Below are positions 18,092 to 44,035 of a stretch of 64,000 nt of DNA, one piece after another. The DNA lies in assembly GCA_027315185.1 (NCBI GenBank), contig DAHUYO010000006.1, forward strand, positions 395 to 64,394, written 5' to 3'. The stretch comes from Acidobacteriota bacterium. Lineage in GTDB: Bacteria > Acidobacteriota > Terriglobia > Terriglobales > SCQP01. The notes beneath the pieces are model-generated. The model ran no database searches. It saw only the letters and a list, made by a program, of their open reading frames with translations, and was not told where the DNA came from. The position numbers were made by a program, and so were the translations under genes. How positions within the stretch are numbered: the stretch's first letter is position 1; every line of letters begins with the position of its first letter.

Positions 18092-18093
18092 CC

Positions 18094-18930: not shown

Positions 18931-18945
18931 AGGAAAGGTTGCACC

Positions 18946-21900: not shown

Positions 21901-22791
21901 GCGGAGGCGGCAGGGGCCGAGGGTATGGGGCTGGCGCCGGAGGAATTGGCGCGGCGTTGGATCAGCTACGCTGTCGGCGTCGTGCTCGCCCGGTTCGACG
22001 TGGGAAAGGATGGTGGGTTGGGCCGTGGCCGCTTCCCGCCAAAAACCAACGACGCCCTGCGGCAGCTAGCCGCGCCCCGCGGCCTGCTGGTCCAGGACCC
22101 AGGCCATCCCGACGACTTCGCCCATCGCGTGCTTGCCGCCCTGCGCGTCATGCTCGGCCCGGACGCAGCCGACGACGCCGTCCACGCCGCCACCGGCACC
22201 GCCCGCCCGGCGGAAGACGCCCTGCGGGATTACCTGCCGCGCGCCTTCCTGAAATGGCATATTCAGGCGTATCGCAAACGCCCGGTCTATTGGCTGCTGG
22301 AGTCGCCCGCCCGCGCCTACGGCGTTTGGCTGTTTCATGAGCGGTTGGCGAAAGACACCCTGCTGCGCGTGCAGGCCGATTACCTGAATCCGAAAATCCG
22401 CCGCCTGGAGGGCGAGCTGAAGGGGATCAAGCAAAAGGAGGAGAACGCCGCCGGAACCGAAAAACGGCGGCTGAAATCCCAGGCGGACACCTGCATGGAC
22501 CTGCTCAACGACCTGCGCGAATTTCAGAAACGCCTCGACGACGCGGTCCAGGGCGGCTATGCGCCCCACCGCGACGACGGCGTCCTGCTGAACCTGGCGC
22601 CGCTCCGGGAACTGATCCCGGCGTGGTCGGCGGAGCCCCGCAAGGCATGGCAGGCGTTGCAGAAGGGCGAGTACGATTGGGCGCGCCAAGCGATGGCGTA
22701 TTGGCCGGACCGCGTGCGGGCGAAGTGCAAGAACAACCGCTCGTTCGCCATCGCCCACGGCCTTGAAAAGGCGGAGGCGGCCGGTGGCTAG
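18946..22791 (+). CDS. pglX: BREX N6-adenine DNA methyltransferase PglX
   Basis: 1281 aa. Catalytic 'VVATNPPYMSSRK' (NPPY). GTG start. Canonical position. Confidence 0.9.
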   Translation: MDPNTVAALRSFTLDARAFLEQEASEQLEGLYGWIPGGDISPAKHYPALTAHAEAKETRRRLEQFLADEGAAGLNPKAARAKLVKEAAFTWLNRFVAFRLMEGSGLIKQTVSRGAESNAFKLWLTEAANAPWLAEYERGDLPKDEIGEGPRARAYRRFLLAQCARLAEEIRVLFDPDDLPSRLFPRAPALQRLVAAAGEEALAPAWAPGGEEAVGWIYQSFNARELESAFREARTSGRKFQKEDIASVTQLFTPRLAVSFLVENTLGRLWLEIHPDTRLAPGWTCLAQPPGAAGATPRLAREITFMDPACGTMHFGLVAFDLFAAMYQEEIARAGEPGWPATPSVASQQEIPAAIIANNLFGVDIDLRAVQLAALALYLRAKRLGPGAVIRDTNLAVGGVEVLGGRRLERFLAAAGFDEPAYEELTRAAWSELEAAEQLGSLLRPERIVESAVGSAKKARGPELPLFDGLWQNLAAAVAKSLDEFARGEAAAGRQATFFAGEGARGLRLLDLLARQYDVVATNPPYMSSRKMNPTLKGLVAKHFPSAKGDLYAAFVERCLELAGQGGRVGMLSMHSFMFISSYEPLRGRIAKRAAIEALAHFGPGLFAVGNPGTLQTAAYALRREPDAERRKEAVGTYFRLVKERDAQAKQKAFEESLVRLKSGQPDPRVFHYRQADFDAIPGSPWVYWITPGLRRLFKDSPQMASLCQPKIGMRTGDNPRFLRYWWEVGRGAVGFGAADAKGALRSGKGWFPYMKGGAFRRWYGNQDRVVRWAGDGEEIKENTRRQYPSLGENLGWKISNEGCYFRRGVTYSYLTAGRFSARLSPGGFIFDVAGSSLFPDDVPPTLAVMNSEFAAYALCLINPTVNFQVGDIARLPMPRLSSQALERLVNEAIALARADSEEDQTTYDFIAPPAWPGGAADVAARHTRLAEIERELNEEVYRLYGVGAEDRAAIERELAKNAGAPDERGEGEDNGEEGEDGGEEAEAAGAEGMGLAPEELARRWISYAVGVVLARFDVGKDGGLGRGRFPPKTNDALRQLAAPRGLLVQDPGHPDDFAHRVLAALRVMLGPDAADDAVHAATGTARPAEDALRDYLPRAFLKWHIQAYRKRPVYWLLESPARAYGVWLFHERLAKDTLLRVQADYLNPKIRRLEGELKGIKQKEENAAGTEKRRLKSQADTCMDLLNDLREFQKRLDDAVQGGYAPHRDDGVLLNLAPLRELIPAWSAEPRKAWQALQKGEYDWARQAMAYWPDRVRAKCKNNRSFAIAHGLEKAEAAGG

Positions 22792-25363
22792 GGTTTCGGG
22801 CGAGCTGCGGCGCATAATCGAGGCCCAGCTCGCCGCCCGCGGCATCGTGGTCTGGTACGACGCGGAGAGGGCCTACGAGCAGTGGGTTGGGTCCCTCGCG
22901 CTGCCCGACGCGCCGGTGCTGCGGTACGAGTCCAGCTTTTTCGCGCTAAAAGCCGCGCTGGAGCCGTTCCTCGAATGGGTCGCCGCCGACGGCCGGCCCG
23001 ATCCCGGCGGCCACGTCCCGCGCCGCGTCCTGGTCTACGTTCCGCTCAGCCAGGACCAGTCGCATTACGCCCTGGTCGAAGCCGAAACCGCCGGCGCGGT
23101 CCTGCAGCCCGGCGCGCAGCCGCGGCAAGACACGCGGCTGAAGACCATCGCCGAGCGGGTATTCCGGGAAGTTGACCCCCAGCAGGCGGCGGAAGTTGGA
23201 CTCCAGGTGGAACGCGGCGCCTACGGCCTCGCGGAGCTGGACCGGATGGCGGAGCAGCAGGGCTCCGCCGCCGACGCGGGACTCCGCCTGATTTTCAACA
23301 CGGCCTCGCCCACCGAGGTGGCGCTGGCCTTTGCCCAGGATGGCCGCTACGATGCCGCCATCACCGCCAAGCAGGCGATGCCGCCGCTGGCCGCTCTGCT
23401 GGAGGCGGAGTTCGGCGTCGCCCTGAAGCCCAGCACCGCTCCGGCAGCCGCCCGCGCCGAGGTCCGCCGGCGCCTGCTGGCTGGCGATCTTCTGGCCGGC
23501 ATCCCGTCCGCGCAGCGCCCCCGCCAGCTCACGGCGCTTGCTCCGGGGGACGAGGCGCAGCTCGGGCGCTGCCGCCAGGTCTGCGAACATTGGCGCAACC
23601 GCGTGGACGCGCGGGAAGAATATTCCCACGCGGCCCGCCAGGTTGAGGCGGAGGTCCGCTTCCCATCTCTGTCCATCCCCGTGGCCGCCCTGGCGGCGAG
23701 TGAAACGTTTCCATCCGCCGAGGAAGTGCTGCTGGCGGAGGCGGAGGGTCGGATCACCGCCGGCGAGCTCCGCCCGGCGCTGGAGCTGGCGGAGGCTCGT
23801 CTCCGCTACTTTTGGGCGACCGCTGAGCCCGCCTTCGGCCTACAGTGGGCGTTCCTCGCGTCGGCCTGCCGCGCCGGACTTCTCGCCTCCACCGTCCGCG
23901 CTGCGCTGAAGCCGGCCCAGCGCGACGCCGACGGCCTTCTGGCGGCTTACGCGGCGGGCCCCGAGCCCTGGTGCCTGTTGGATACGTATTATCGCCAGAT
24001 GGAATCCTACGACGCCCAGCGCCGCGAAAGAGCCGCGGGGGACCGCGACGGGCTGGACCGCGCCGTTCGCCAGACCCGCCAAACCTACACCGAGGCCGTG
24101 GCGGCGCTGGCTGAGGCCTGGACCGACGCGCTCGCCGCCTCCGCATTCCGCCCCCAAGGCGCGCCGCGCCAAGACCGCGTGTACGCCGACTACGTCGCGC
24201 CGGCTCTCCGCGAAGGCCGCCGGACGGCTTATTTCCTCGTAGACGCCTTGCGTTTCGAGATGGGCCGGGAGCTGGCGTTAAGCCTCGAAAGGGACTTTGA
24301 GGCGGCCCTGTTCCCGACGCTGGCCGTCGCGCCGACGGTTACCGAGGTGGGCATGGCGGCACTGCTCCCCGGCGCCGAGCAGGGGATGGCGCTGGCCAGC
24401 AAGGCGGAAAAGCTAGCCGTGCGGCTGGACGGAGCGGTCCTGCGCGACCGCGCCGGGCGCCTGGCCTACATGCAAAGCCGCGTGGAGGCAAAGCTGCTGG
24501 CGCTCAAGATGTCGGAGATTTCCCGCGCCAAGCGCAAAATTGAGGAGGCCAGCCCCGGCCTGCTGCTGGTCACCTCGCAGGAAATTGACAAGCAAGGAGA
24601 GATGGGCGATGACGACGACGGCGCCCGGGAATACATGAACAATATGCTGGCCAGGCTCAGCCAGGTCATCTCCCGCCTGGCGCAGCTCGGATTCGAACAC
24701 TTTGTCATCGCCGCCGACCACGGGCACTTGTACGGCGAGGCCGGCGAGGCCGGCCTCAAGATGGATCCGCCCGGCGGCCAGACCCTGGCGCTGCGCCGCC
24801 GCGTTTGGGTTGGCCGGGGCGGCGATTCCGGCGCCGGATTCCTCCGTCTCTCGTCCCGCGACCTGGGTCTGGACGGCGAATGGGAGGCGGCGTTTCCGCG
24901 GGGCCTGGGGCTGTTCAAAACCCGCGGCGGTTCGGCGACCTATTTTCACGGCGGGCTGTCCTTGCAGGAAATGCTGATCCCGGTGCTCGTGCTCAAGGCC
25001 AGGGCCCGGCAGCCCGCGGCGCGCGGGGCGCGCGTGGAGCTCGCGCTCGCGCGCGGCAAGGTCACGACGCGATTCTTTTCGCTGACCCTGACGTATCGCG
25101 CCGAGGGGTTGTTCGGCGCGGACGCGGTGGAAGTCAGGCTGGCCGTGACCGCCGGCAGGAGGGAAGCCGGCGCGCCGGTGATGGCCGCGTACGGCTTCAA
25201 CGAGGCTAGCCGGGAGGTTCGCCTCCTGAGGGACCAGCCCAATCCGGTCACCGTCGGCGTGGCCGAGGAGGGAATCACGCGCCTGACCGTTACCGTGCAG
25301 GATGCGGCCACCCAAGTGGAGCTAGGCCGCCTGGAGAACATTGCAGTCGAGATCGCGATCTAG
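22763..25363 (+). CDS. pglZ: BREX alkaline-phosphatase-superfamily protein PglZ (start TTG 22763 or GTG 22784)
   Basis: N-terminal 'IVVWYDAERAY'. PglZ-domain region 'YFLVDALRFEMGREL ... FVIAADHGHLY'. Overlaps the pglX stop. Confidence 0.85.
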   Translation: MKRRRRPVARVSGELRRIIEAQLAARGIVVWYDAERAYEQWVGSLALPDAPVLRYESSFFALKAALEPFLEWVAADGRPDPGGHVPRRVLVYVPLSQDQSHYALVEAETAGAVLQPGAQPRQDTRLKTIAERVFREVDPQQAAEVGLQVERGAYGLAELDRMAEQQGSAADAGLRLIFNTASPTEVALAFAQDGRYDAAITAKQAMPPLAALLEAEFGVALKPSTAPAAARAEVRRRLLAGDLLAGIPSAQRPRQLTALAPGDEAQLGRCRQVCEHWRNRVDAREEYSHAARQVEAEVRFPSLSIPVAALAASETFPSAEEVLLAEAEGRITAGELRPALELAEARLRYFWATAEPAFGLQWAFLASACRAGLLASTVRAALKPAQRDADGLLAAYAAGPEPWCLLDTYYRQMESYDAQRRERAAGDRDGLDRAVRQTRQTYTEAVAALAEAWTDALAASAFRPQGAPRQDRVYADYVAPALREGRRTAYFLVDALRFEMGRELALSLERDFEAALFPTLAVAPTVTEVGMAALLPGAEQGMALASKAEKLAVRLDGAVLRDRAGRLAYMQSRVEAKLLALKMSEISRAKRKIEEASPGLLLVTSQEIDKQGEMGDDDDGAREYMNNMLARLSQVISRLAQLGFEHFVIAADHGHLYGEAGEAGLKMDPPGGQTLALRRRVWVGRGGDSGAGFLRLSSRDLGLDGEWEAAFPRGLGLFKTRGGSATYFHGGLSLQEMLIPVLVLKARARQPAARGARVELALARGKVTTRFFSLTLTYRAEGLFGADAVEVRLAVTAGRREAGAPVMAAYGFNEASREVRLLRDQPNPVTVGVAEEGITRLTVTVQDAATQVELGRLENIAVEIAI

Positions 25364-25375
25364 GAGCCGAAACCA

Positions 25376-27427
25376 ATGGCGCTGGGCACGGAGAAAACAA
25401 CGACGGATCTGGACCAAAAGGCGTCAGCGGTCTTCGCCGGCAAGGTGGTCCGCAAGGACTTGGTGCGCAAGGTCAAGGTCGGCGCCAACGTGCCCGTGTT
25501 CGTGCTCGAGTACCTGCTGGGCAAGTATTGCGCCACGGACGATCCCCAGGCGATCGAGGCCGGCCTGCGGGTGGTGAACTCCACCCTGGCGGAAAATTTC
25601 GTCCGGCCCGACGAGGCCAACAAGGCGCAGTCATTCGTTCGCGAGAAGGGAACCCATTCCCTGATTGACAAGGTCAAGGTCCGATACCTTTCCGACGACG
25701 ACAAATATTGGGCCGAGCTCGTGAATTTCGGCCACCGCTTCGTCCATATCCCCGACCAATACGTCCGCCAATTCGACCGCCTGCTCATGGGCGGGGTCTG
25801 GGCTCAGGTAAAACTCCGGCACCAGTACGACGATTCCGCCAGTGGCAAGAAGAGCCCATTCCGGATCGAAGAACTCCAGCCGATCCAGGTGGCCACCTTC
25901 AGCCTGGACGACTACCGCTCCGCCCGCGCCGCGTTCTCAACCGAGGAGTGGATTGACCTTTTGATCCGTTCCGTCGGCTTGGAGCCGACGGGCTTCGACC
26001 ACCGCCTCAAGCTCCTTCTGCTCACCCGTTTGCTCCCCCTCTGCGAGCCCAACTTCAACCTTGTCGAGCTGGGGCCGCGCGGCACCGGCAAGTCCTACGC
26101 CTATCAGGAGCTGAGCCCCTACGTCATCCTGCTCACCGGCGGCACCACCGTAGCCAATCTGTTTTACAACATGGCCACAAACCGGATGGGCCTGGTCGGA
26201 CTCTGGGACGCGGTGGCCTTCGACGAGGTCGCCGACCTGCAAAAGATGCCCAAGGAAGTCGTCACCACCTTGAAGACGTACTGTGAATCAGGGTCCTTCG
26301 CGCGGGGCAAGGAGTCCCTAACCGGCCACGCCTCAATCGCTCTATTCGGCAACACCAACCAGCCCGTCGAGGTGATGGTGCGCTCTTCCCACCTGTTCGT
26401 CCCGCTTCCCGACGCCATCCGGGAAGACCTCGCCTTTCTGGATCGCCTGCACTTCTACCTGCCCGGATGGGAAATACCCAAAATGCGGGTGGAATTCTTC
26501 ACCGACCACTACGGCTTCGTGGTGGACTACTTGGCCGAGGCGTTGCGCGAGCTGCGGCGGCACAACTTCACCGAGCTGCTCGACCGCCACTACGCGCTCG
26601 GCGCCCATTTGAACGCTCGCGACGTCAAGGCCGTACGAAAGACCGTGGCTGGCCTGGCCAAGCTGATTTACCCGAGCGGCGACGTGACCAAGGAGGGATT
26701 GGGCGAGATCGCCGAGCTGGCGCTGGAGGGCAGGCGCCGGGTGAAGGAGCAGCTCAAGAAGATGGGCTCGTTCGAATACCACCAGACCTCGTTTTCGCTG
26801 ATCGACGCCGAGACCAGGGAGGAGAAATATGTCGGTGTGCCGGAAGAGGGGGGAAGGAATCTAATCTCCGCGGATCCGCTCGCCCCAGGGTCGGTCTACA
26901 CCGCGGCCGTGGATTCCGAGGGCAAGGTGGGCCTTTACCGGCTGGAGGTGGGCTGCTCGCCGGGCACCGGAAAACTGAAAATCAGCGGCGCGGCCGATGG
27001 AGAGATGAAAGAGGCGATCCAGCGCGCGTTCGCCTACCTGCGCGGGCACAAGGTGGAGATGGGCATCGCGCAGGCCCTCGACACGACGGATTTCCACGCC
27101 GAGGCGATTGACCTGCTCGGCAACTACGTCCCCTGCGACGCCGGCGTCGCGCTCGTGGTCGCTGTCTATTCGGCCCTCAAGAAACAACCGGTCCTGCCCG
27201 CGCTCCTCGTGCTCGGCGACCTGAGCATCCAGGGCAACATCAAGCCTACCCACTCGCTCGCCGAGCCCCTACGCATCGCCATGGACAACGCCGCCCGCCG
27301 GGCGCTGATCCCGCTGGAGAACAAGCGCCATTTCCTTGAGGTCCCCGCCGATATCGTCGAGCGCGTGGATCCCATCTTCTTCGGCGACCCCATGACCGCA
27401 GCGCTCAAGGCCCTGGGAATGAACTGA
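25376..27427 (+). CDS. brxL: BREX Lon-like protease BrxL
   Basis: N-terminus 'FAGKVVRKDLVRKVKVGANVPVFVLEYLLGKYCATDDP'. AAA-like 'LGPRGTGKSY'. C-terminal Lon protease-like domain. Last gene of type 1 BREX. Confidence 0.9.
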   Translation: MALGTEKTTTDLDQKASAVFAGKVVRKDLVRKVKVGANVPVFVLEYLLGKYCATDDPQAIEAGLRVVNSTLAENFVRPDEANKAQSFVREKGTHSLIDKVKVRYLSDDDKYWAELVNFGHRFVHIPDQYVRQFDRLLMGGVWAQVKLRHQYDDSASGKKSPFRIEELQPIQVATFSLDDYRSARAAFSTEEWIDLLIRSVGLEPTGFDHRLKLLLLTRLLPLCEPNFNLVELGPRGTGKSYAYQELSPYVILLTGGTTVANLFYNMATNRMGLVGLWDAVAFDEVADLQKMPKEVVTTLKTYCESGSFARGKESLTGHASIALFGNTNQPVEVMVRSSHLFVPLPDAIREDLAFLDRLHFYLPGWEIPKMRVEFFTDHYGFVVDYLAEALRELRRHNFTELLDRHYALGAHLNARDVKAVRKTVAGLAKLIYPSGDVTKEGLGEIAELALEGRRRVKEQLKKMGSFEYHQTSFSLIDAETREEKYVGVPEEGGRNLISADPLAPGSVYTAAVDSEGKVGLYRLEVGCSPGTGKLKISGAADGEMKEAIQRAFAYLRGHKVEMGIAQALDTTDFHAEAIDLLGNYVPCDAGVALVVAVYSALKKQPVLPALLVLGDLSIQGNIKPTHSLAEPLRIAMDNAARRALIPLENKRHFLEVPADIVERVDPIFFGDPMTAALKALGMN

Positions 27428-29674: not shown

Positions 29675-30133
29675 ATGGGCTCTCCGGTCAAGGACGCAAT
29701 CGCCATCGCCAAGGGTATGGGCGTAACCCTCAAGAACATGTTCCAGCCCGCGGTGACGGAGTTCTATCCCGACGAGCCGGTGCATTTCGAGGAGCGCTAT
29801 CGCGGCGTGCACGTATTGCAGCGCGATGAGAACGGTTTGGAAAAATGCGTCGCCTGCTTTCTCTGCGCCGCCGCCTGCCCCAGCAACTGCATTTACATCG
29901 AGGCCGCCGACAATACCGCCGAGCAGCGCATCAGCGGCGCCGAGCGCTACGCCTCGGTGTACAACATTGATTACAACCGCTGCATTTTCTGCGGCTACTG
30001 TGTGGAAGCCTGCCCCACCGACGCCATCACCCACGGCCATGGTTTTGAACTGGCCACCTACGACGCGAGCAATTTGATTTACCGCAAGGAGCAGCTGCTC
30101 GCCCCCGTGCCCGCCGCCGACCAGGCCCGATAG
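29675..30133 (+). CDS. nuoI: NADH-quinone oxidoreductase subunit I (2x[4Fe-4S] ferredoxin-type), stand-alone
   Basis: '[17 protein letters not shown]' and '[17 protein letters not shown]' cluster motifs. 'RGVHVL' NuoI-type N-terminus. Confidence 0.85.
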
Positions 30134-30349: not shown

Positions 30350-33300
30350 TTGGCGTCAGAAGCGGAAGTGAGCACCGTTTCCCTCCCGCTCCCGTCATCC
30401 ACGGTGGCGCAGACCGCCCCGCTGAGCTGGCAGCAAGAGCAGATTTGGCTGCATGGCCAATGGGCGGGCGCGGCGCCCATCTATCAAGAGACGGTAGCCA
30501 TTCGCCGCCAGGGCGGCTTTGCGGAAGCGCCCTTGCGTTCCATGCTCGCCGCTTGGGTGGCGCGCCATGACATTCTGCGCACGACATTCGGGGCCGGGGC
30601 CGATGCGCCCGTCCAGCGAGTCGCCGCCCAGGCCGAAACGGCGCCGCTGTCCATCGTGGACGTCGCCAGCGAAGCGGACGCCCTGGCGCTGGCGCAGGCC
30701 GATGCGTGCACCCCCATGGATTTGGCCAATGGTCCGTTGGTGCGCGCCCGCTGGACGCGGTGGCCCGAGGGGCAAGGCGTCTATTTAACGTTGCATCATT
30801 TGATTTTCGATGGCGCCACCGTGCGCCAAATCTGGCTGCCGGAGTGGGCCCTAGCCTATGGCGCCGGCAGTTCGGGAGCGGCGGCGCCCATGGCCGCGCC
30901 GGGCTACGCGGAGTACGCCCGCTGGCAGCGCCAGACTCCCGATGCCGCCGCCGAGCGGGCCGCCGAACATCGCGATTTCTGGCGCCGCCACTATCAGGGG
31001 GAGTGGCCGCGACTGGAGTTGGGCGGCGACCCCGCTGCGCCACGCTTCGCCGCCGTGAGCCGGCGCTTCAGATTGGAGCCCGCCTTGTGGGCGGCGCTGG
31101 CCCGGACCGCCTCCGCCTCCCGCGCCACGCCCTTCATGGTCCTGCTCGCCGCCTACGCGGCGCTGCTTCATCGCCTGGGCGGGCAGGAAACGGTCATCGT
31201 CGGCCTTCCCGCCGCCGCGCGGGGCGAGCGCCGCTGGGCGCGGCTGGCTGGGCCGATGGTCAATACTCTGGCCCTCCGCTTCGACTGCGGCGGTAATCCC
31301 AGCTTCAGTTCCTTCCTGCGCCAGGCCCGCGACAACCTGCTGGATGCGTTGGCGCATGAAGAGTATCCCTACACGTTGGCCCTGCGCGAGGCGCCGGGGG
31401 AGAGCACCGCCATTGGCTTGGAAGCGTATCTTTCCTTCCAGCCGCCGGATGAACATCCCGTTCCCGGTTGGGAACTCAGCCATCTGGAGGTGGAAACCAG
31501 CGTTAGCAAGTTTCCTCTTCACTTCGATATGGAAGCTGTCGCCGGCGGCGCCGAGGGCCGCTGCCATTGTCAGCGCTCGCGCGTGGACGCCGCCTTGGCT
31601 ACGGCGCTGCCGGAACATTGGCAGGTGCTGTTGGCAGGCGCCGGCGCCGATGCGGAGCAGCGCCTCGGCGCGCTGCCGCTGCTGTCGGCCGAGCAACGCC
31701 GCGCCGTGCTGGCCCTCAGCCGCGGCCCGGAACCCGTGCTGCCGGCCGGCTCGGTGGCCGAAGTGTTTGCCCGCCAGGCGGCGGCGACGCCAGAGGCGGT
31801 GGCCGTGGTGGCGTTGGAACCCGCAGCGGCGCCGGGGGCCGCGCCGCCCCGCCGCGTGCTCACCTACGCCGTGCTCCAGCACCAGGCCGAACAACTGGGG
31901 CGCGGCCTGCGCCGCGCCGGCGTCGCCCGCGGCGACGTGGTGGCCCTGGCGCTGCCGCGTTCGGCGGATACCATCGCCATCTTTTTGGCCCTGCTTGCCT
32001 GCGGCGTCGCTTATCTGCCGCTGGAACTCGATGATCCGCCGCAGCGGCGGCAGCGGCAGTGGCAAGCCGCCGGCGCGCGCTGGGTGATCGGACGCGGCGA
32101 GAGCGGCCTGCGCGCGTTGGCGATCGCGGAGCTGATGCGCCTTGGCGCCGCCCCCGAAGCCACGCCGCTTCCCGCTGTCCCGCCGGAAGCCATCGCCTAC
32201 ATCATGTGCACCTCGGGCTCGACCGGCGAGCAACTGCCCGTCCGCATTCCCCATCGCGGCATCCTGCGCTTGGTTGCCAACCCTGGCTATGCACATTTTG
32301 GCGACGACGAGACGTATTTGTTGCTGGCGCCGCTGGGTTTCGATGCCTCCACCTTTGAGATCTGGGCGCCGCTGCTGAACGGCGGCCGCTTGGTGATTCC
32401 TCCTCCCGGTCTGCCCACGGCCGGCGAGTTGGGCGATTGGATCCGCCAGGAAGAAGTGACGACGCTGTGGCTGACCACCGCGTTGTTCAACACCGTCATC
32501 GAGACCGCGCCCCAGGCGCTGGCGCCCCTGCGGCAGCTGCTCACCGGCGGCGAGGTGATGTCGTTGCGCCACATCCGCCAGGCGCGGCAGTCGCTGCCCG
32601 GCGTGGCCCTGTTCAATGCCTACGGGCCGACCGAAAACACCACGTTCACCACGATGCACCCGGTCGCCGGCACCTCCGGCCCCATGCCCCTCGGTCGTCC
32701 CATCGCCCATTCCCAAGCCTACGTCGTGGACCAGTATGGCGAACTGGCCGCCGCCGGCGCCGCCGGCGAGCTGTGGGTGGGGGGACTGGGCCTGGCGGCG
32801 GGTTACGTCGGCGGCCGAGCGGCGGAACGCTTCGTCACTCCCAGCTGGCTGGGCGGCGCACGGTTGTTCCGCAGCGGCGACCGCATGCGCTGGGAAAATG
32901 GCGAGTTGGCTTTTCTTGGCCGCCGCGATCAGCAGATCAAGCTGCGCGGCCTGCGCGTCGAGTTGTCCGCGCTGGAAGCGCATCTGGCCCGCCAGCCCGG
33001 CGTGCGCCAGGTGGCCGTGCTGGCCTCCGGCGCCGGCGCCGACCAGATGCTGACCGCGTTCGTCGCCGCGCACGACACCACGGCTGAGGTCTTGCGCTCC
33101 CGCCTCGCCGCCGAGCTGCCCGCCGCCACCATCCCCACTCGCTGGGTGATTCGCCCCGAGCTGCCTTGCCTGCCCAGCGGCAAACTGGATCGCCGCCGGC
33201 TGCCCGCCCTGGCCCCCGCGCTGCGGCGTGAGCCGCCCGCCGCGCACGCAATGTCGCTCCGGGAAGAGCAACTGCGCGCCATTTGGGAGCGTGCGTTGGG

Positions 33301-34336
33301 GCGCGACGGCATCGGCCGGGAGGATGACTTTTTCTCCTTGGGCGGGCACTCCCTGACCGCCCTGCGCATCTGCGCCGAAATGGAACGCCGCTTCGGGCGC
33401 CGTCTGCCGCTGGCCGCCCTGCCGGCGTACCGCACCATCGCCGCGCAAGCCGCCTGGCTGGAGCAAGGCGGCGCGGCGGCGCCGGTGGGCGAAAATCCAC
33501 GCGCCGTTCCGTTACAAACCGGCGATCCGGAGCGCCCTTGCATCTATTCGGTCGAGGCCGGAGACCGCTTCCTGCGCGTCGCCGAGCAGATGGGTCCCGA
33601 GCAGCCCTGGTGGAGCCTGCGCCTGGCCTCGCTGGCCGAGCTGCCGCACCCCAGTCCGATGGCCGCCATTGCCGCGTATCACATCCGCACGCTGCGGCAG
33701 CTCCAGCCAGAGGGGCCCTATTTCCTGACGGCATGGTGCCAAAACGGCGTCGTGGCGTTCGAGATGGCGCGGCAACTCGCCGCCGCCGGGCAGCATGTCG
33801 CGTGCTTGGCGTTGATTGATGCCGTCAGTCCCGCCTACTTGCGCCGCGTGGGTGGTTTTTGGTGGCCGATCTTTCGTAGCCGTTACGCCTGGCACCAGTG
33901 GCGCCTGCGGCGCCAAGGCGTCGGCGCGCTGACGGTCAATCGCGAGGCTGCGGCCTGGTCCAGCCCCGCCGGCGCCACCTGGCGCCGCTGGCTGTACCGC
34001 TGGCGGCGGCCCGCCGATCCGCCTCGCCTCGGCGAGCCCGCGGCGGTCGTGCAGCACGCTTTGCGCCGCTATCGCCCCGCCCCCTATCCCGGCCGCATCG
34101 TGCTGTTCCGGTCCCAGCACCAGATTCTTTCCTTCCGCGGCATGGGCCGGTTTCGCGATCCCAAGATGGGTTGGGAGGAATTGGCCGCCGGCGGATTGGA
34201 CATCCGCGAGATCATGGGCGGCCATACGGAAATTTTTGCGCCGCCGGGCGGCGCGGCCATGGCCCGCATCTTCGCCCACATTGTCACGGCCGCGGGCGTT
34301 CCGCTTCCCGTGGGCTGCGGGCAGGAATCATCATGA
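30350..34336 (+). CDS. Non-ribosomal peptide synthetase, single module C-A-T-TE
   Basis: C domain '[11 protein letters not shown]' (HHxxxDG). A-domain cores 'TSGSTGE', 'NAYGPTE', 'FRSGDRMRW', '[16 protein letters not shown]', '[10 protein letters not shown]'. PCP '[12 protein letters not shown]'. TE region '[20 protein letters not shown]...LIDA...GGHTEIF'. Confidence 0.9.
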
Positions 34337-36114
34337 TCCCAGACTGGTTGTCTTCCATCGCCGAACATGCGCGGCGGCGCCCTCAGGCCTTGGCGATTGT
34401 CGCCGCGGGGAAATCCCTCACCTACGAGGAGTTGGTGGCGCGTGCCCAGGGGTTGGCCGCGCGCTTGGCCGCAGCCGGCTTGGGACGCGAAAGCCTGGTG
34501 GCCCTGGCTCTGCCCAATGGCCTGGCCCGCGCCGCCGCCACGCTGGCGGTGCTCCAAGCCGGCGCCGCCTATCTACCGCTGAGTCCCAACGATCCTCCTG
34601 GACGCCTGGAGTCGGTGCTTTGGGATTCCGGCGCGGAACTGCTGCTGGCGCCGCCGGAACTGGCCCAGCACCTGGCGACCGGCCCTTGGTCCACATGGGT
34701 CATCCAGGGCCTAGAGGATCTGACCGATGGTGGTGGGCCCATTCCCCTGCCGACCGCGGCGCCGGAGGATCTCGGCTATGTGATCTATACCTCCGGTTCG
34801 ACCGGAGCGCCGAAGGGCGTGGAGATCGAGCGCTGCGCTCTGGCGCAGCTGATCGCCTGGCACCAGCGCGAATACCAGGTCACTCCCGCCGACCGCGCTT
34901 CGCTTCTGGTCCATCCCGCGTTTGACGCCGCCGTCTGGGAGTTGTGGCCCTATTGGGCGGCCGGCGCCAGCCTGCACGTAGCGCCGCCAGAGGCGCGGCT
35001 CGATCCGCGGGCACTGCGCGACTGGCTGCTGAGCGAGCGGATTACGATTGCAATCGCCGCCACCCCGCTGGCCGAACAGCTCATCACGCTGCCCTGGCCG
35101 GCGGAGACTCCGCTGCGGGCGTTGCTGACGGGCGGCGATCGGTTGCGCCGCCGCCCGCCCGCCGGTCTTCCATTTCCCCTGATCAATCATTACGGACCGA
35201 CGGAAGCCACCGTCGTCACCACCTATGGTTCGGTGCCGCCGGCGGGCGAGGGTCTGCCGACGATCGGCCGGCCGGTGCCCTATCTGGAGGTCCGCATCTG
35301 CGCTGGCGACTTGGCCCCCGTCGCCGCCGGCGACTCGGGGGAACTGTGCATCGCCGGCGCCGCGCTGGCCCGCGGCTACCGCCGCGACCCCCGGCTGACC
35401 GCGGAACGCTTCGTCATGGAATCGGCAACTGGGCGGCGGTGGTATCGCAGCGGCGATTGCGCCCGCTGGCGCGCGGACGGCGCCCTGGAGTTTCTGGGCC
35501 GGGCCGACCGGCAGGTGAAGATCCGGGGCTGGCGCATTGAGCCCGCCGAGATCGAGCGCCAGCTCATCGCCCATCCCGCCGTCGCGGCCGCCATCGTCGA
35601 AGTGGCGGCTCCCAGCCGTGGCGATCCTGCGGCGGATCCCCGCTTGGTCGCCTATTTGGCGGCTTGCGGCGCCGAGCGTCCAGGGCTGGCGGCGATGCGC
35701 GCGTTTCTCCGCTCCGAGCTGCCGGAACCGATGCTGCCCTCCGAGGTCCGCTGGCTGGCGGAGATGCCGCAGACGGCGCAAGGCAAATGGGATCGCGCCG
35801 CCCTGGCCACGGCGCCGGTGCTGGCCGCCGACGACGCCGCCGAGCCAGTGGCGGCGGCAGCCCTCAGCTCCACGGTCGCGGCGCTGGCTGGCATTCTCGC
35901 CGAAGCGCTGGGCGCCGACAGCGTCGGACCGGATCAAGATTTTTTCCTGCTCGGCGGACACTCCTTGCTGGGCGTGCAATTGATCGCCCGCGTGCGCGAG
36001 GAAATGGGCGTCGCCTTGCCCCTGCGCGCCATCTTCGACCATCCCACCGCCGCGCGCCTGGCGGAGGAAATTGACCGGCGTCGCGCGGGAGCCGCGCTGG
36101 AGGCGGCCCGCTAA
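34333..36114 (+). CDS. Free-standing adenylation-PCP (A-T) didomain protein
   Basis: ATGA overlap with the NRPS stop. 'YTSGSTGAPKGV', 'NHYGPTE', 'YRSGDCARW', 'GRADRQVKIRGWRIE', 'QGKWDRAAL'. PCP 'FFLLGGHSLLGV'. Confidence 0.9.
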   Translation: MIPDWLSSIAEHARRRPQALAIVAAGKSLTYEELVARAQGLAARLAAAGLGRESLVALALPNGLARAAATLAVLQAGAAYLPLSPNDPPGRLESVLWDSGAELLLAPPELAQHLATGPWSTWVIQGLEDLTDGGGPIPLPTAAPEDLGYVIYTSGSTGAPKGVEIERCALAQLIAWHQREYQVTPADRASLLVHPAFDAAVWELWPYWAAGASLHVAPPEARLDPRALRDWLLSERITIAIAATPLAEQLITLPWPAETPLRALLTGGDRLRRRPPAGLPFPLINHYGPTEATVVTTYGSVPPAGEGLPTIGRPVPYLEVRICAGDLAPVAAGDSGELCIAGAALARGYRRDPRLTAERFVMESATGRRWYRSGDCARWRADGALEFLGRADRQVKIRGWRIEPAEIERQLIAHPAVAAAIVEVAAPSRGDPAADPRLVAYLAACGAERPGLAAMRAFLRSELPEPMLPSEVRWLAEMPQTAQGKWDRAALATAPVLAADDAAEPVAAAALSSTVAALAGILAEALGADSVGPDQDFFLLGGHSLLGVQLIARVREEMGVALPLRAIFDHPTAARLAEEIDRRRAGAALEAAR

Positions 36115-37361
36115 TGGCCGCCGCCGATACCGCCGCCGAGCGGCTGACGCTGACCCGCCTGCTGGATCCCGCGGTGCTGGCAGATCCCTATCCGCTCTAC
36201 GCCCGGCTGCGGCGGGAAGCCCCGGTGCATTGGGACCCCTACCTCCATGCCTGGGTCGTGACCCGATACGACGACGTCATCACGGTGCTCCGGCAGTTTT
36301 CCGCCGCCCGGACGCCGAAGCCGGAGCAACTGGCGGCGATCGGCTTGGGCGAATTGGCGCCGGTGGCGGCGGTGCTGGTGCGGCAGATGCTGTTCCTCGA
36401 TCCGCCGGCCCACACCCGCATCCGCGCGCTCGCCGCCCAGGCCTTCACCCCTGGCCGCGTGGCGGCGATGCGCTTCCACATTCGCGACATCGTAGCCCGC
36501 CTGCTGGCGCCGCCCGCGGCCATTGGCCGCATCGAGGTGATCGCCGACCTGGCCGCGCCGCTGCCCAGCATCGTGACCGCGGAGATGCTCGGAGTGCCGG
36601 CGGAAGACCACGAGAGGCTGAAAGCCCTTTCGGCGGAGTTCGCCGGCATCCTCGGCAACTTCCAGCACAACCCCGACCGCGTGGCGCGCATGCTGCATGC
36701 GGTCGAGAGCCTGACGGCCTACTTCCGCCGCCACATCGCCGCCCTGCGCTCCGGGCGGGACCAGCGCAGCGGGCTGGTCGCCTCGTTGCTGGCAGCCGAG
36801 GTGGATGGCGACCGTCTGAGCGAGGAAGAGGTGGTCGCAAACGCCATCATCACCATGGTGGGCGGCCAGGAGACCACCACCAATTTGATCGGCAACGGGC
36901 TCTTGTCCCTGCTCCGCCATCCCGCCGAATGGGCCCGTCTGCGCTGCGACCCAAGCCTGGTTCCCACGGCGGTCGAGGAACTACTGCGCTACGAAAGTCC
37001 CAGTCAGCACACCGCCCGCTTGGCCCCCGCTGACCTAGAGCTAGGCGGGCGGCAGATCCGCCGCGGGCAAGCCGTCGTTGCGGTGATGGCCGCGGCCAAT
37101 CGCGATCCAGAGCAATTTCCCGATCCCGATCGTCTGGACCTCAACCGCCAGCCCAATCACCATGTCGCCTTTGGCTGGGGCGCGCATTTCTGTTTCGGCG
37201 CGGCGCTGGCGCGCATCGAGGGCCAGGAAGCACTGCGCGGCATGGTCGCCGCTTTCCCCCAGTTGGCGTTGACGGCAGAGCCGCTGGTCTGGCGGCCCAA
37301 CCTGGCGCTTCGCGGCCTGGAAGCCTTGCCGCTGGTGGCTGCCGGCAACGGCGCCCCCTAG
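36114..37361 (+). CDS. Cytochrome P450
   Basis: Heme-binding loop 'FGWGAHFCFGAALAR'. ExxR 'EELLRYESP'. Its ATG shares one nt with the A-T stop (TAATG). Confidence 0.9.
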   Translation: MAAADTAAERLTLTRLLDPAVLADPYPLYARLRREAPVHWDPYLHAWVVTRYDDVITVLRQFSAARTPKPEQLAAIGLGELAPVAAVLVRQMLFLDPPAHTRIRALAAQAFTPGRVAAMRFHIRDIVARLLAPPAAIGRIEVIADLAAPLPSIVTAEMLGVPAEDHERLKALSAEFAGILGNFQHNPDRVARMLHAVESLTAYFRRHIAALRSGRDQRSGLVASLLAAEVDGDRLSEEEVVANAIITMVGGQETTTNLIGNGLLSLLRHPAEWARLRCDPSLVPTAVEELLRYESPSQHTARLAPADLELGGRQIRRGQAVVAVMAAANRDPEQFPDPDRLDLNRQPNHHVAFGWGAHFCFGAALARIEGQEALRGMVAAFPQLALTAEPLVWRPNLALRGLEALPLVAAGNGAP

Positions 37362-37409: not shown

Positions 37410-38243
37410 ATGGCGGATACGGACCTGCGGGAGGCGGTGCGGCAGCGCTACGGCGCGGCGGCGCAGCGGGTGAGCGGCGGTCAGAACAACGGTTGTTGCG
37501 GCGCAGCGCCCATTCAAGGCGGCTGCGACCCCATTACCTCCAATCTTTATGACGCCGAGCAGTTGGCGGGCATGCCGGAGGCGGCGGGACGGGCCTCGCT
37601 CGGTTGCGGCAACCCCACGGCGCTGGCGGATCTCCGGCCGGGCGAGGTAGTGCTGGACCTGGGTTCCGGCGGCGGCTTGGACGTGCTGTTGTCGGCGCGG
37701 CGAGTGGGGCCCGGGGGCAAAGCCTACGGTCTGGACATGACCGACGAGATGCTGGCGCTGGCGCGGGAGAATCAATCGCGCGCCGGCGTCGCCAACGCCG
37801 AGTTTCTCAAAGGTCACATCGAGGAAATTCCGCTGCCCGATGCCAGCGTGGACGTCATCGTTTCCAACTGCGTCGTCAATCTTGCCGCCGACAAGGATCA
37901 AGTGCTGCGCGAAGCTTTCCGCGTGCTGCGGCCCGGCGGTCGCTTGGCCATTAGCGACGTGGTCAGCCGCGGGGCCGCGCCCGTGGCCATCCGGCGCAGC
38001 TTGGAGTTATGGGTGGGCTGCATCGCCGGCGCATTGGAGGAAAGCGACTACCGCGCCAAACTGGCCGCCGCGGGATTCGCCGCGATCACGATCGAGCCCA
38101 CGCGCGTCTATCGGGTTGCGGACGCGCGCGAATTCCTGGCCGGGCAGGGCTGGGACGTGGACGCCATCGCCGCGCAAGTGGATGGGCTGTTTTTCAGCGC
38201 CTTTATTCGCGCGAGCAAGCCTGCAATGCCGCAAGGGGCCTAG
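37410..38243 (+). CDS. arsM: ArsM-like SAM-dependent methyltransferase
   Basis: SAM motif '[13 protein letters not shown]'. Cys pattern typical of arsenite methyltransferases ('GCCG', 'LGCGNP', 'SNCVVNL', 'WVGCIAGAL'). Confidence 0.75.
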
Positions 38244-38349: not shown

Positions 38350-39582
38350 ATGGCCAACGCCGCCCCATCCAGCCGCCCAACTCCGGCCGCCGCCTCCGAG
38401 ACGGTAGGCATGTGCGGCGTGGGCGGGCCAGAACGTGCGGCCAGCCGCGGAGCGGACGCAAAGGTCGCGGACGCATATGATCGGTGGCGCGCGCAGCTCG
38501 CGGGCAGTTGGCCCGAATTTCTCGCTCGCCGGCAAGCCGCGCTGTGCGCCGGCGGACCGGCGGTGGCCGCGGCGATCACGCACGCATTGCTGACGGCGGT
38601 GCTCGGCTGGCGCAGCGAGGAGATCTGCCGGCAGTATCGGCCGGCGGGGCCGGCACCCGCTGCCCCGGCACGGGCGGAACGGGGTAATGCCATGCGGGAG
38701 CCGGCGGGCGGGCGGACCGCCGAGCCGATCTGGGAACTCGCCGCTTCGCGGCTGCCCATGCCGAGTCCAGAGCCTGCGGAAACCTGGACCACGTTCCAGG
38801 TTGGCACTGGCAACGGGCGGGAGCGTTGCGTGCTGGCGATCTCCAGTCCGGGCGGGATACCGGTGCGGCAAACGGGGCGCTGTCATGCAATGCAGGCGGC
38901 AGCGCAGCGCGCCCGCGTGTTGGGTATCGGCCATGCCGGCGTTTGCGACGGCGGTTTGCTCTACCTCGAAGACGACGATGGCGGCCCGCGGCGCGCGCGG
39001 CTGCGGGTTTGGCTGGGGCAGACGAGCGCGCCGGGTGAACTATGGTGGGCGACGCCGATGGGACTGACGCAGCCGGTGACGCCAATGCAGGCGGCACTTG
39101 TCTTTACGCCGGCCGGCCCGGCGGTGGGGAGCGCCGTGGCGGACGGTTCCGGCGGCGTGGGATTGAAGGCAGGAGCACAACTGCATCCGCGGTTGCAACT
39201 GCCGGCCGCATGTTTCGCCTTTGTGGGCGATCCCATGCGGCCGACCACCTGGAAGCTGCCGTACCGCCGGGCGGATGGCCGCGCCGATCTGCGCCGGCTG
39301 ATCGCGGCGGCGCATCATGCGGCGGCTTCGCTGGCGACTCCGATCAGGGGCGGAGTGCCTTACGGCGAACTGCCGGTGGTTATCCACCGCCTGGCCGATG
39401 CCGCGCGCGAACTGGGCCAACTGTCGCCGGGCAATCGCCACCCCTCGGGCGTATTTCAGCGGCTGGCCGCCGCCGAGCAACGCTGTGGCGGGGTCTCGCC
39501 GCCGCGCATGGGGCCTGACGTGGCACTGCGATCCCCAGCGGTGGGTGCGGGCGGGCCAACGCGCCGAGGGGCCGGACAATGA
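38350..39582 (+). CDS. Hypothetical protein (weakly supported ORF; start uncertain)
   Basis: Longest sense ORF in an otherwise empty 1.3-kb gap. Protein-like stretches (e.g. 'CFAFVGDPMRPTTWKLPYRRADGRADLRRLIAAAHHA'). A hairpin plus T-run lies ~60 nt downstream. No recognisable domain. Confidence 0.3.
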   Translation: MANAAPSSRPTPAAASETVGMCGVGGPERAASRGADAKVADAYDRWRAQLAGSWPEFLARRQAALCAGGPAVAAAITHALLTAVLGWRSEEICRQYRPAGPAPAAPARAERGNAMREPAGGRTAEPIWELAASRLPMPSPEPAETWTTFQVGTGNGRERCVLAISSPGGIPVRQTGRCHAMQAAAQRARVLGIGHAGVCDGGLLYLEDDDGGPRRARLRVWLGQTSAPGELWWATPMGLTQPVTPMQAALVFTPAGPAVGSAVADGSGGVGLKAGAQLHPRLQLPAACFAFVGDPMRPTTWKLPYRRADGRADLRRLIAAAHHAAASLATPIRGGVPYGELPVVIHRLADAARELGQLSPGNRHPSGVFQRLAAAEQRCGGVSPPRMGPDVALRSPAVGAGGPTRRGAGQ

Positions 39583-41374: not shown

Positions 41375-44035
41375 GTGCCGATTCGTTTTGACAAACTCAC
41401 GGTGAAATCGCAGGAAGCGCTGGAGGCGGCGCGGTCGCTGGCCGCTGAACACGGGCAAGCGGCCATCGAGCCGCTGCATCTGCTGCTGGCTTTGCTGGCC
41501 GACCGGGAAGGCGTGGTGCTGCCGCTGCTGGCGCGTTTGGGCGCCGACGTCCGCGCCATCACCGCCGACGCGGAGAAGGAACTGGCGCGGCGGCCGCAGG
41601 TGCAAGGCGCCAGCGTGGAGCGGGGGCTGAGCCCGGCGCTGGGGCAGGCGCTGGAGGAGGCGTTCCGCCAGGCGGACAAGTTCAAGGACGAATACGTCTC
41701 CGCCGAGCATCTTTTGCTGGGCATGCTGTCGCTGGAGCGGGATGCGGCGGCGGAGGTGCTGGCGCGGCACGGGGTGACCGCGGACCGGGTGTTGCAGGCG
41801 CTGATGGCGATTCGCGGCAGCCAGCGCATCACCGATCCCAACCCCGAGGGGAAGTTCCAGGCGCTGGAACGGTACGCCCGCGACCTGACGGAGGCGGCGC
41901 GGCAGAACAAGCTGGATCCGGTGATCGGCCGCGACGAGGAGATTCGGCGCGTGGTGCAGGTGCTGTCGCGGCGCACCAAGAACAACCCGGTGCTGATCGG
42001 CGAGCCGGGCGTAGGGAAGACCGCCATCGTGGAAGGGCTGGCGCGGCGCATCGTGGCCGGCGACGTGCCGGAGGCGCTGCGGTCGAAGCGGGTGGTGGCG
42101 CTGGACCTGGGGGCGCTGATCGCCGGAGCGAAGTACCGCGGCGAGTTCGAAGACCGGCTTAAGGCGGTGCTGAAGGAGATCGAGGACTCCGGCGGGCAGA
42201 TCATCCTGTTCATTGACGAACTGCACACGCTGGTGGGGGCGGGTGCGGCGGAAGGCTCGATGGACGCCTCCAACATGCTGAAGCCGGCGCTGGCGCGGGG
42301 CGAACTGCGGGCCATCGGCGCCACCACGCTGAACGAATACAAGAAGCACATCGAGAAAGACGCGGCTCTGGAGCGGCGCTTCCAGCCGGTGTTGGTGGGC
42401 GAGCCGACGGTGGAAGACGCCCTGGCGATTCTGCGCGGCTTGAAGGAACGCTACGAGATTCACCATGGCGTGCGCATTCAGGATGCGGCGCTGGTGGCGG
42501 CGGTGCGGCTGTCGCACCGCTACATCGCGGACCGGTTTCTGCCCGACAAGGCGATTGATCTGGTGGACGAAGCGGCGGCGGCGCTGCGCATGCAGCTGGA
42601 TTCGCGCCCGGCGGAGATCGAGGCGCTGGAGCGGCGGCTGACGCAGCTGGAGATCGAGCGGCAGGCGCTGGCCAAGGAGAAAGATCCCGGTGGGGTGGCC
42701 CGGCGGCAGCAGATCGAGGAGGAGATCGCCAATCTGCGGGAGCGCACCGCGGCGCTGACCGCGCGATGGACGGAGGAGAAGAGCCGGATCCAGCGGGTGC
42801 GGGAGGTGAAGCGGCAGCTGGACACGCTGCAAGGCGAGGAGGAGCAGGCGGAGCGGTCCGGCGACCTGAGCCGCGCGGCGGAGCTGCGCTATGGGCGCCG
42901 CGTGCAGCTGGAGCGGGAACTGGCCGCGGCGCAGCAGGCGCTGGAGGCGGCGGAGAGCGGGAAACGGCTGCTGCGGGAGGAAGTGGGCGAAGAGGATATC
43001 GCCCGCGTGGTGGCGAAATGGACCGGCATTCCGGTGAGCAAGATGCTGGAGAGCGAGACGCAAAAGCTGGTGGCGATGGAGGAGCGTCTGCACCATCGCG
43101 TGGTAGGCCAGAACGCCGCCGTTACCAGCGTCAGCGACGCGATTCGCCGCTCCCGCGCCGGGCTGGGCGACCCGCGCCGCCCAATCGGGTCGTTTCTGTT
43201 TCTGGGCCCCACCGGCGTGGGCAAAACGGAGCTGGCGCGCGCGCTGGCGGAGTTTTTGTTCGACGACGAGCACGCCATGATCCGGCTGGACATGAGCGAA
43301 TACATGGAGAAGCATTCGGTCGCCCGGCTGATCGGCGCGCCGCCGGGATATGTCGGCTATGAGGAGGGCGGGCAGCTGACGGAGCGGGTGCGGCGGCGGC
43401 CCTATTCCGTGGTGCTGCTGGATGAGGTGGAGAAGGCGCACGCGGACGTGTTCCACGTCCTGTTGCAGGTGCTCGACGACGGGCGGCTGACCGACGGTCA
43501 GGGGCGGACGGTGGACTTCCGCAACACCGTGGTGATCATGACCTCCAACCTGGGCAGCCAGGCGATCCGCAGCGGCGATTTCGCCAGCGCCGCGGCCGAG
43601 GCGGAGCTGCGGCGGCGCTTGCAGGAGATGCTGCGCAGCCATTTCCGGCCGGAGTTCTTGAACCGGATTGACGACATCATCATCTTCCATCCGCTGGGCC
43701 GGGAGCAGATCGAGGTGATCATTGACCTGCAACTGGAGCACCTGCGCGGGCTGCTGGCGGCGCGGGACATTCAGTTGGTGCTGGCGCCGTCGGCGCGCGA
43801 GCTGATCCTGGCGCAGGGCTACGACCCGGAATACGGGGCACGGCCGTTGAAGCGGGCGTTGCAGCGGCTGGTGCAAAATCCCTTGGCGTCGGCGCTGCTG
43901 AAAGGCGACATCCGGCCGGGCAGCGTGGTCGAGGCGGCAGCGGGCGCGAGCGGCGAACTGGCGTTCCGGACGGCGGCGGCGCAGGAAGCAGCCCCTGCGG
44001 CGGAAGGGGGCAAGCGCGCGGCGCGGCCGAAGTAG
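41375..44035 (+). CDS. clpB: ATP-dependent chaperone/disaggregase ClpB
   Basis: GTG start. Clp_N '[15 protein letters not shown]'. Two AAA+ modules with Walker A 'GEPGVGKT' and 'GPTGVGKT'. Long coiled-coil M-domain between them. Confidence 0.95.

Follow-up and report, generated by a model that had tools for sequence, protein, structure and literature searches.

A thioesterase domain with cysteine at the nucleophile position in a conserved peptide synthetase cassette of a soil acidobacterium

Thioesterase (TE) domains of nonribosomal peptide synthetases (NRPSs) that use a catalytic cysteine have been characterised in three enzymes, and in all three a Cys-to-Ser exchange loses the natural reaction and leaves hydrolysis (PMC6668435, PMC11536411). 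Here we analyse a TE domain with Cys at its nucleophile position, located at the C-terminus of an NRPS with condensation (C), adenylation (A), carrier (T) and TE domains. The gene lies in a stretch of 64,000 nucleotides from an uncultured soil acidobacterium (contig DAHUYO010000006.1, positions 395 to 64,394), which we call the window. A preliminary description of this DNA, made without database searches, noted the Cys and compared the domain with enzymes that close strained rings. Our results indicate that it very probably belongs to another kind of Cys-TE, with the catalytic residues in their canonical positions.

Two kinds of Cys-TE can be told apart in the literature. The TEs of ObiF (obafluorin, a beta-lactone) and SulM (sulfazecin, a beta-lactam) have their catalytic Asp after strand b7 ('position II'), resemble the type II TEs RifR and RedJ overall, and act on a substrate with a beta-nucleophile on the C-terminal residue (PMC6668435, PMC11298585). 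ObiF1 has Gly1173 at the site 27 residues past the Cys (Cys+27) and its catalytic Asp1254 after the next strand (PMC6668435), and in SulM the catalytic Asp is Asp2926 and the Cys stands in a Gln-Cys-Asn motif (PMC11298585). Activity is not restored when the Asp of ObiF is moved to the Cys+27 site (PMC11298585), and an Asp in the EntF-like position is reported to be a steric obstacle to loading of the ObiF Cys (PMC6668435). The other kind includes BulbE of bulbiferamide biosynthesis (Microbulbifer), with a triad of Cys961, Asp988 and His1097 and the Asp after b6; its indole-N macrolactamisation needs the Cys, and the Cys-to-Ser mutant merely hydrolyses (PMC11536411). AB3403 (ABBFA_003403 of Acinetobacter baumannii, PDB 4zxh and 4zxi) likewise combines a Cys with an Asp in the ordinary position (PMC6668435, PMC11298585), and its chemistry is uncharacterised (PMC11298585).

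The thioesterase domain and its catalytic residues

The TE domain of the window consists of the following features:

33527-34309, plus strand: type I thioesterase domain (alpha/beta hydrolase), from Pfam PF00975, an AlphaFold2 (AF2) model and Foldseek
33731-33748, plus strand: nucleophile elbow A-W-C-Q-N-G with the predicted catalytic Cys (TGC 33737-33739), from the sequence, alignments and the AF2 model
33818-33820, plus strand: GAT codon of the predicted catalytic Asp (in LIDA) at Cys+27, 'position I', from the family alignment and the AF2 model
33842-34114, plus strand: lid region with an unusually high content of Trp and Arg ([19 protein letters not shown]...[10 protein letters not shown]), with a predicted local distance difference test (pLDDT) of 45-66 and a ratio of nonsynonymous to synonymous substitution rates (dN/dS) of 0.10 against locus L001
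34223-34225, plus strand: CAT codon of the predicted catalytic His (in GGHTE) after b8, aligned with the GDH of AB3403 (phmmer) and placed by the AF2 model

The domain matches PF00975 with 45.2 bits (against a cut-off of 26.4), all top Foldseek matches of its model are TE domains, and an HMMER search of 1.84 billion representative proteins yields 25,578 relatives at E<=0.001. Codons 33731-33748 (GCA TGG TGC CAA AAC GGC) lie on the plus strand in an open reading frame (ORF) of 1328 codons (30350-34336) and read A1128 W1129 C1130 Q1131 N1132 G1133. These residue numbers count from the ORF start at 30350; C1130 corresponds to Cys1112 from the annotated start (GTG 30404).

The preliminary description had placed this Cys at the nucleophile position on the basis of an alignment with SrfA-C, and had suggested a proper alignment and a structure model as checks. 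Both agree with it. With phmmer against PDB chains, the elbow segment [11 protein letters not shown] aligns with PYFLGGWCFGG of AB3403, and the same register puts GYSMGG of 7r0x (the oocydin TE), GWSLGS of 7crn and GWSFGG of NocB opposite the window Cys. The corresponding column of a MAFFT alignment of 80 homologues (from a word-indexed search) holds 59 Ser and 17 Cys. In the AF2 model, built from a 47-sequence alignment (pLDDT 81.6 overall, 95-98 in the core), the Cys (model residue 88) occupies the nucleophile elbow, with strand 82-87 before it and helix 90-103 after it. The Asp of LIDA (model Asp115) stands immediately past strand 108-114 (b6), the His of GGHTE (model His250) past strand 241-246 (b8), and each of the two columns is conserved to 90% or more in the TE family alignment. 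Hence a Cys at the nucleophile position, with the Asp (LIDA) and His (GGHTEIF) retained, is confirmed by the phmmer, MAFFT and HMMER alignments and by the model, independently of the SrfA-C alignment; none of the alignments places another residue at the elbow.

To which kind of Cys-TE the domain belongs can be judged from search ranks in the PDB and from the published descriptions. The best Foldseek match of the TE model is AB3403 (E 2.9e-14), followed by the TEs of Pks13, FAS, EntF and NocB, and AB3403 is also the best match of the family profile, which covers it from end to end of the TE, lid included (359 bits). By comparison, the profile aligns ObiF only to mid-TE, ObiF is not among the 30 phmmer matches at E<=1 (PDB chains), and ObiF, SulM, RifR and RedJ are all absent from the top 50 Foldseek matches. 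The window TE shows both a Cys nucleophile and an Asp after b6 at Cys+27, the combination found in AB3403 and BulbE. With ObiF and SulM it shares the Cys, but it has an acid at Cys+27 instead of an Asp after b7, its nearest structures are not RifR, RedJ, ObiF or SulM, and the last A domain has a predicted Val-like code (see below) rather than one for a residue with a beta-nucleophile; moreover, its elbow reads W-C-Q and not Q-C-N as in SulM. Because the Asp sits at Cys+27 after b6, AB3403 is the best Foldseek match and the profile covers the whole AB3403 TE, we are quite confident that the window TE is a canonical-triad Cys-TE of the AB3403/BulbE kind and not of the ObiF/SulM kind. The analogy with ObiF and SulM drawn in the preliminary description is therefore not upheld.

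A different concern is whether the domain is intact, as both glycines of the GxSxG motif are substituted (A-W-C-Q-N). Such a loss might suggest a decayed and inactive TE, the more so since the column two positions before the nucleophile (Nu-2) is at least 90% Gly in the family and holds Ala in the window. At Nu+2, on the other hand, residues other than Gly are frequent in the clade (for instance GLCVNG, GGWCQAG and GGWCLSG among the 150 best representatives). The T/A-A/G-W-C-Q-N-G elbow is present in L001, L002, all 15 members of the 90% cluster and L006/L007, and is kept in at least 17 independent assemblies; in L006/L007 it reads AGWCQNG even though their TE is just 65% identical to that of the window. 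Given that the same elbow recurs in all these sequences, the Cys is not a sequencing accident. Compared with the 94%-identical orthologue in L001, the TE shows a dN/dS of 0.20 (lid 0.10, C domain 0.23, A domain 0.17), and the value for the whole NRPS gene is also 0.20 (against L001/L004). With the Asp and His retained and the core fold confidently predicted, decay is very improbable, and the best reading of the sequences is a functional type I TE under purifying selection. No part of the TE is more constrained than the lid (dN/dS 0.10), even though it is modelled with low confidence.

A conserved cassette of A-T, P450 and NRPS genes

The TE terminates an NRPS that is followed by two further genes, and the three together form a cassette:

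30404-34336, plus strand: NRPS gene, C-A-T-TE termination module, from Pfam; the ORF begins with TTG 30350 and the start codon is annotated as GTG 30404 (1310 amino acids)
30407-31705, plus strand: condensation domain, elongation type, from PF00668, with the HHLIFDG motif at 30794-30814
31766-33184, plus strand: module-2 adenylation domain, code DAFWLGATFK (Val-like aliphatic), from alignment to GrsA-PheA positions 235-517
33266-33460, plus strand: carrier (T) domain, from PF00550, with the phosphopantetheine Ser in GGHSL (TCC 33350-33352)
34333-36114, plus strand: stand-alone A-T loading module, 593 amino acids, code DAWILGHVVK (Leu type), from Pfam and code alignment
36114-37361, plus strand: cytochrome P450, 415 amino acids, from Pfam, with the intact heme motif FGWGAHFCFG

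The NRPS start was taken from a near-identical database protein (P0234, 1310 amino acids), and GTG 30404 is probably the true one. Pfam finds Condensation, AMP-binding, PP-binding and Thioesterase domains in that order. The closest solved C domains are those of Txo1/Txo2, TycC-C6 and the fuscachelin PCP-C, whereas C domains of the starter type, and that of AB3403, match far more weakly. Specificity codes were read against the GrsA positions, for module 2 and the A-T protein also by multiple alignment, and for the A-T protein by alignment with LgrA as well. We take DAFWIGGTFK and DAFWLGGTFK to be codes for Val, from which the module-2 code is one step away. Each start overlaps the stop of the gene before it, ATGA between NRPS and A-T and TAATG between A-T and P450, and in L008 and L010, which are more distant relatives, the gene order is collinear with the assembly line (A-T, P450, C-A-T-TE).

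Because the C domain is of the elongation type, the genes overlap and L008 and L010 are collinear, the assembly line is most simply read as a two-module NRPS split over two proteins, of which the A-T protein would be module 1 and the C-A-T-TE protein module 2. The C-terminal, TE-bound residue would then be of the Val type, without a beta-hydroxyl; the Leu associated with the P450 would sit on the upstream loading module and so become the N-terminal residue. No further carrier protein or NRPS gene was found near the cassette. Searched for as exact sequences in the contig index, the P450 and NRPS of the window itself gave no match, and the genomic context was drawn from the loci of relatives.

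Homologues of the P450 with 63-84% identity are abundant in soil metagenomes and in metagenome-assembled genomes (MAGs) of Acidobacteria, Methylomirabilota and Thermoanaerobaculia, and 80 metagenome loci were collected by P450 alignment. In 52 of the 58 loci with enough upstream sequence, a script found an A-T gene (or a T domain truncated by the contig end) immediately upstream of the P450, and on inspection four of its six misses (L039, L053, L063 and L091) show A-T or T as well. On the other side, 47 of 56 loci have a gene that starts with a C domain directly downstream of the P450. Of the A-T partner genes, 56 carry DAWFLGNVVK, the canonical Leu code, and the P450 has a dN/dS of 0.10. These data support the A-T protein and P450 as a conserved functional unit that would act on a carrier-bound amino acid. 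In this respect the preliminary description, which had linked the pair to beta-hydroxy amino acids, was right about the unit itself (52 of 58 loci, translational coupling); the oxidised residue, however, would be residue 1 and not the one bound to the TE. The combination of Leu-type A-T, P450 and a following gene that begins with a C domain recurs across the 80 loci (L006-L091) and in MAGs of several phyla.

Cysteine, serine and the release reaction

According to the preliminary description, Cys-type NRPS TEs are rare. The nearest relatives show otherwise: the 150 best of the 1.84 billion representatives (HMMER) contain 179 TE stretches, with 110 Cys, 64 Ser and 5 other residues at the nucleophile position, and a Cys-TE had already been solved (AB3403, 4zxh). 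Judged from these sequences, Cys is the majority nucleophile in this TE clade and is rare only among characterised enzymes; a published census of Cys-TEs was not found in the literature. Many of the nearest relatives are C-A-T-TE or A-T-TE proteins. Often, too, the TE is present in tandem (TE-TE) or internally in a multi-module synthetase (e.g. C-A-T-TE-A-T-...), frequently with Cys in one copy and Ser in the other; examples are P0083, P0087, P0091, P0092, P0093, P0143, P0154, P0159 and P0227.

Downstream of the P450 both the modules and their TEs differ between cassettes. A Val-like module-2 code is combined with a Cys-TE in the window, L006/7, L080, L008/9, L010, L012, L027, L074 and L079, and with a Ser-TE in L043 (DAFWLGGTFK) and L044 (DAFWLGATFK). 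Not counting the window, this makes 9 distinct Val-type loci with a Cys-TE and 2 with a Ser-TE. L044 agrees with the window in gene order and module-2 code but has the elbow AGASFGG. Where module 2 has another code (DPRNFVLRAK, for example), the TE is mostly of the GGRSLGG form. This distribution hints that Cys is favoured, though not obligatory, for the predicted Leu-Val type of cassette. The preliminary description had accepted that Ser homologues with the same chemistry would speak against its reading. L044 goes part of the way, as it has the same gene order and code with Ser. A second Cys-TE lineage in the cassette has the elbow GGYCNGG (L008, L010, L012, L027, L074 and L079) and is about 25% identical to the window TE. 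It is without the b6 Asp and has Ala there (e.g. LIATDADTR), and may rely on another acid or on a Cys-His dyad. Two genes of this lineage were located as follows:

L008, 10230-15233: GGYCNGG-TE gene
L010, 10248-14288: GGYCNGG-TE gene

In the L008 protein a Methyltransf_21 domain is fused after the TE.

From domain order, codes and triad we infer what is loaded, what the P450 does and how the product is released, as follows. The stand-alone A-T protein would load a Leu-type residue, which the co-conserved P450 most likely oxidises on the carrier. The elongation-type C domain would join this oxidised Leu to a Val-type residue on the C-A-T-TE protein, and the dipeptidyl chain would then be transferred from the thiol of the carrier to Cys1130, activated by His1292 and Asp1157, to form a thioester acyl-enzyme. 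Most likely the chain would be released by a nucleophile of its own, with the free N-terminal alpha-amine as the prime candidate, giving a hydroxylated diketopiperazine-type product; the reasons are that a thioester favours aminolysis and cyclisation over hydrolysis, and that Ser mutants of the characterised Cys-TEs revert to hydrolysis. For the statement as a whole (a canonical-triad Cys-TE with Cys1130 as acyl acceptor, from which a modified Leu-Val dipeptide is offloaded by cyclisation or aminolysis) we can claim somewhat less than an even chance, and it is proposed tentatively.

A number of observations weigh against this proposal. Both specificity codes are predictions. Ser- and Cys-TEs are intermixed among close relatives, and L044, whose Ser-TE goes with identical codes and gene order, indicates that the Cys may not dictate the chemistry. 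Among its best 60 PDB matches, the P450 finds 8yhn, BioI (an acyl carrier protein P450), CYP125 and PikC at the top, with OxyD, NikQ and P450sky absent, which is weak evidence as these do not form one clade; its nearest solved relatives are BioI/PikC/CYP125-like enzymes and not known aminoacyl-carrier hydroxylases. The substitution of both elbow glycines is unusual, and the lid is modelled at low confidence (pLDDT 45-66). Finally, no assigned product was found for any member of the TE clade or the cassette.

A competing explanation is that Cys and Ser are interchangeable here, in which case the TE would just hydrolyse its substrate to a linear (hydroxy)Leu-Val acid and the Cys would have no special meaning. 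The alternation of the two residues in the nearest relatives (110 against 64) fits this well, as do the single base change that turns TGC into a Ser codon, the Ser-TEs of L044 and L043 with their Val-like codes, and a triad geometry that is ordinary in the model. It is harder to reconcile with the loss of the natural reaction upon Cys-to-Ser exchange in the three characterised Cys-TEs (PMC6668435, PMC11536411), with the conservation of the Cys across 35% TE divergence in the window lineage, and with the predominance of Cys in Val-type cassettes. We regard interchangeability as unlikely, but as a contender to be reckoned with. A passing of the chain to an external nucleophile or to another carrier might also be considered, the TE-like domain then being an acyl- or aminoacyl-transferase. 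Stand-alone Cys hydrolases such as SyrC and CmaE act in this manner, a Cys provides an energy-neutral thioester hand-off, and TE relatives are often internal or in tandem in larger synthetases (C-A-T-TE-A-T..., TE-TE). The window TE, however, is the C-terminal domain of the last module, and given the lack of a further carrier protein or NRPS gene nearby a transferase is quite improbable.

The closure of a strained four-membered ring, as in ObiF and SulM, would turn a beta-substituted C-terminal residue, supplied through the P450, into a beta-lactone or beta-lactam. A Cys nucleophile together with a small predicted product is in line with this, and so is the tight linkage of the P450 to a carrier-bound amino acid. 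In addition, BulbE shows that a position-I Asp is compatible with unusual cyclisations (PMC11536411), and the P450 might also act on the Val-type residue, in which case beta-hydroxy-Val would be a good substrate for lactonisation. Yet the Asp of the window TE stands at Cys+27 after b6, just where ObiF1 has Gly1173 (PMC6668435), shifting the Asp of ObiF to that site did not bring activity back (PMC11298585), and an EntF-like Asp is described as a steric block to loading of ObiF (PMC6668435). ObiF is moreover missing from the phmmer and top 50 Foldseek matches and aligned by the profile to mid-TE only, and the window has W-C-Q in place of SulM's Gln-Cys-Asn motif. The module-2 code is Val-like and does not point to a beta-hydroxy amino acid or Dap, and the partner of the P450 is the upstream Leu module, which would put the hydroxyl on residue 1. 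Strained-ring closure is consequently quite improbable, and the beta-lactone-type product put forward in the preliminary description is not supported: the TE-bound residue is predicted to be Val-like, the P450-linked Leu to be N-terminal, and the Asp takes the ordinary position.

Returning to cyclising release from a canonical-triad Cys-TE, it might further be speculated that the cassette makes an undescribed class of small oxidised dipeptides, for which a Val-type Cys-TE would be needed to achieve a cyclising release beyond the reach of a Ser-TE. Products could be a hydroxylated diketopiperazine, a seven-membered depsi-ring formed via the Leu hydroxyl or, least likely, a beta-lactone. This wider idea is a long shot.

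Genomic surroundings and comparison with known systems

Several neighbouring genes were considered as partners of the cassette. A methyltransferase gene at 37410-38243 (plus strand) was rejected as a tailoring enzyme of the NRPS, as it matches an arsenite methyltransferase model (NF008823, 355 bits against a cut-off of 263) and is absent from the L006/L007 cassette. Its cysteines occur in GCCG, GCGNP, SNCVVNL and GCIAG contexts, which we presume to be the As(III)-binding motifs of ArsM. A gene for a 2x[4Fe-4S] ferredoxin-like protein (about 29678-30133, plus strand) was judged unlikely to be the redox partner of the P450: it has a NuoI-type appearance, a dN/dS of 0.04 and a distance of about 270 bp from the NRPS gene. 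It is 99% identical to its counterpart in L004, its position upstream of the NRPS is conserved in L004 and L006, and it is probably a housekeeping gene. The ORF at 38395-39582 (plus strand, 395 amino acids) matches no family in Pfam or NCBIfam; conserved counterparts are present in L004/L005 (89% identity, dN/dS 0.28) but not in L006/L007.

Further upstream lies a BREX defence system:

13160-27427, plus strand: BREX system of six genes, complete-looking
13160-13876, plus strand: BrxA
next in order, plus strand: BrxB
14450-18091, plus strand: BrxC
18946-22791, plus strand: PglX methylase
22763-25363, plus strand: PglZ
25376-27427, plus strand: BrxL

As L004 and L006 (and L001, by ORF sizes only) carry MutL and a 268-aa gene at this place, upstream of Ham1/RNase PH, the BREX system would seem to be a strain-specific insertion. 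Elsewhere the window shows an ordinary chromosomal context, with a large FG-GAP/ASH repeat protein (216-3695, minus strand), ClpB (41375-44035, plus strand) and a sigma-54 response regulator (50612-52009, plus strand), and nothing linked to the NRPS was seen in it.

Summarizing, the present work is mainly corrective: the Cys of the window TE is by itself an ordinary variant, coming from a TE clade around AB3403 in which Cys outnumbers Ser. An elbow Cys alone does not signal beta-lactone or beta-lactam chemistry; one must also check where the catalytic Asp lies and which residue is bound to the TE. The more interesting lead is the conserved Leu-A-T/P450/C-A-T-TE cassette, which recurs in many soil metagenomes and, with three genes in about 7 kb, is small enough for direct heterologous expression.

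In its pairing of genes the cassette resembles NikP1/NikQ and the proposed PlyR pairs, where a free-standing A-T protein is paired with a P450 and a carrier-bound amino acid is hydroxylated; in the window the two genes are adjacent and translationally coupled, and the pair is co-conserved across phyla with a Leu code. PlyR has been proposed to hydroxylate carrier-bound Leu (giving beta-hydroxyleucine) in polyoxypeptin biosynthesis (PMC3943440). Unlike in NikP1/NikQ-type pairs, the A-T protein of the window would also be the loading module of an assembly line.

The likeness to AB3403 concerns the TE above all. AB3403 is also a single-module C-A-T-TE protein of about 1320 amino acids, with its Cys in GWCFGG, an Asp at Cys+27 after b6 and a His in GDH, and it shows 40% identity to the window TE across the 58 residues around the Cys and Asp; beyond this core the two are too diverged for BLASTP. 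The C domains are different (E 3e-12 for AB3403, against 3e-38 for Txo2), and AB3403 is, we assume, not accompanied by an A-T/P450 pair. Orthology over the whole protein was therefore rejected, the TE alone being similar and the C domain a distant match.

Going by its published description, BulbE shares with the window TE the Cys/Asp/His triad and an identical spacing from Cys to Asp, whereas it closes a macrocycle via the indole nitrogen of a longer ureidopeptide and the window is predicted to make a dipeptide. ObiF and SulM have in common with the window a Cys in a terminal NRPS TE and small products, but differ in the position-II Asp, the Gly at Cys+27, the resemblance to RifR and RedJ and the beta-nucleophile on the C-terminal residue. 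The window TE thus adds to a known kind, the Cys-TE with a canonical triad, and a beta-lactone is an unlikely product.

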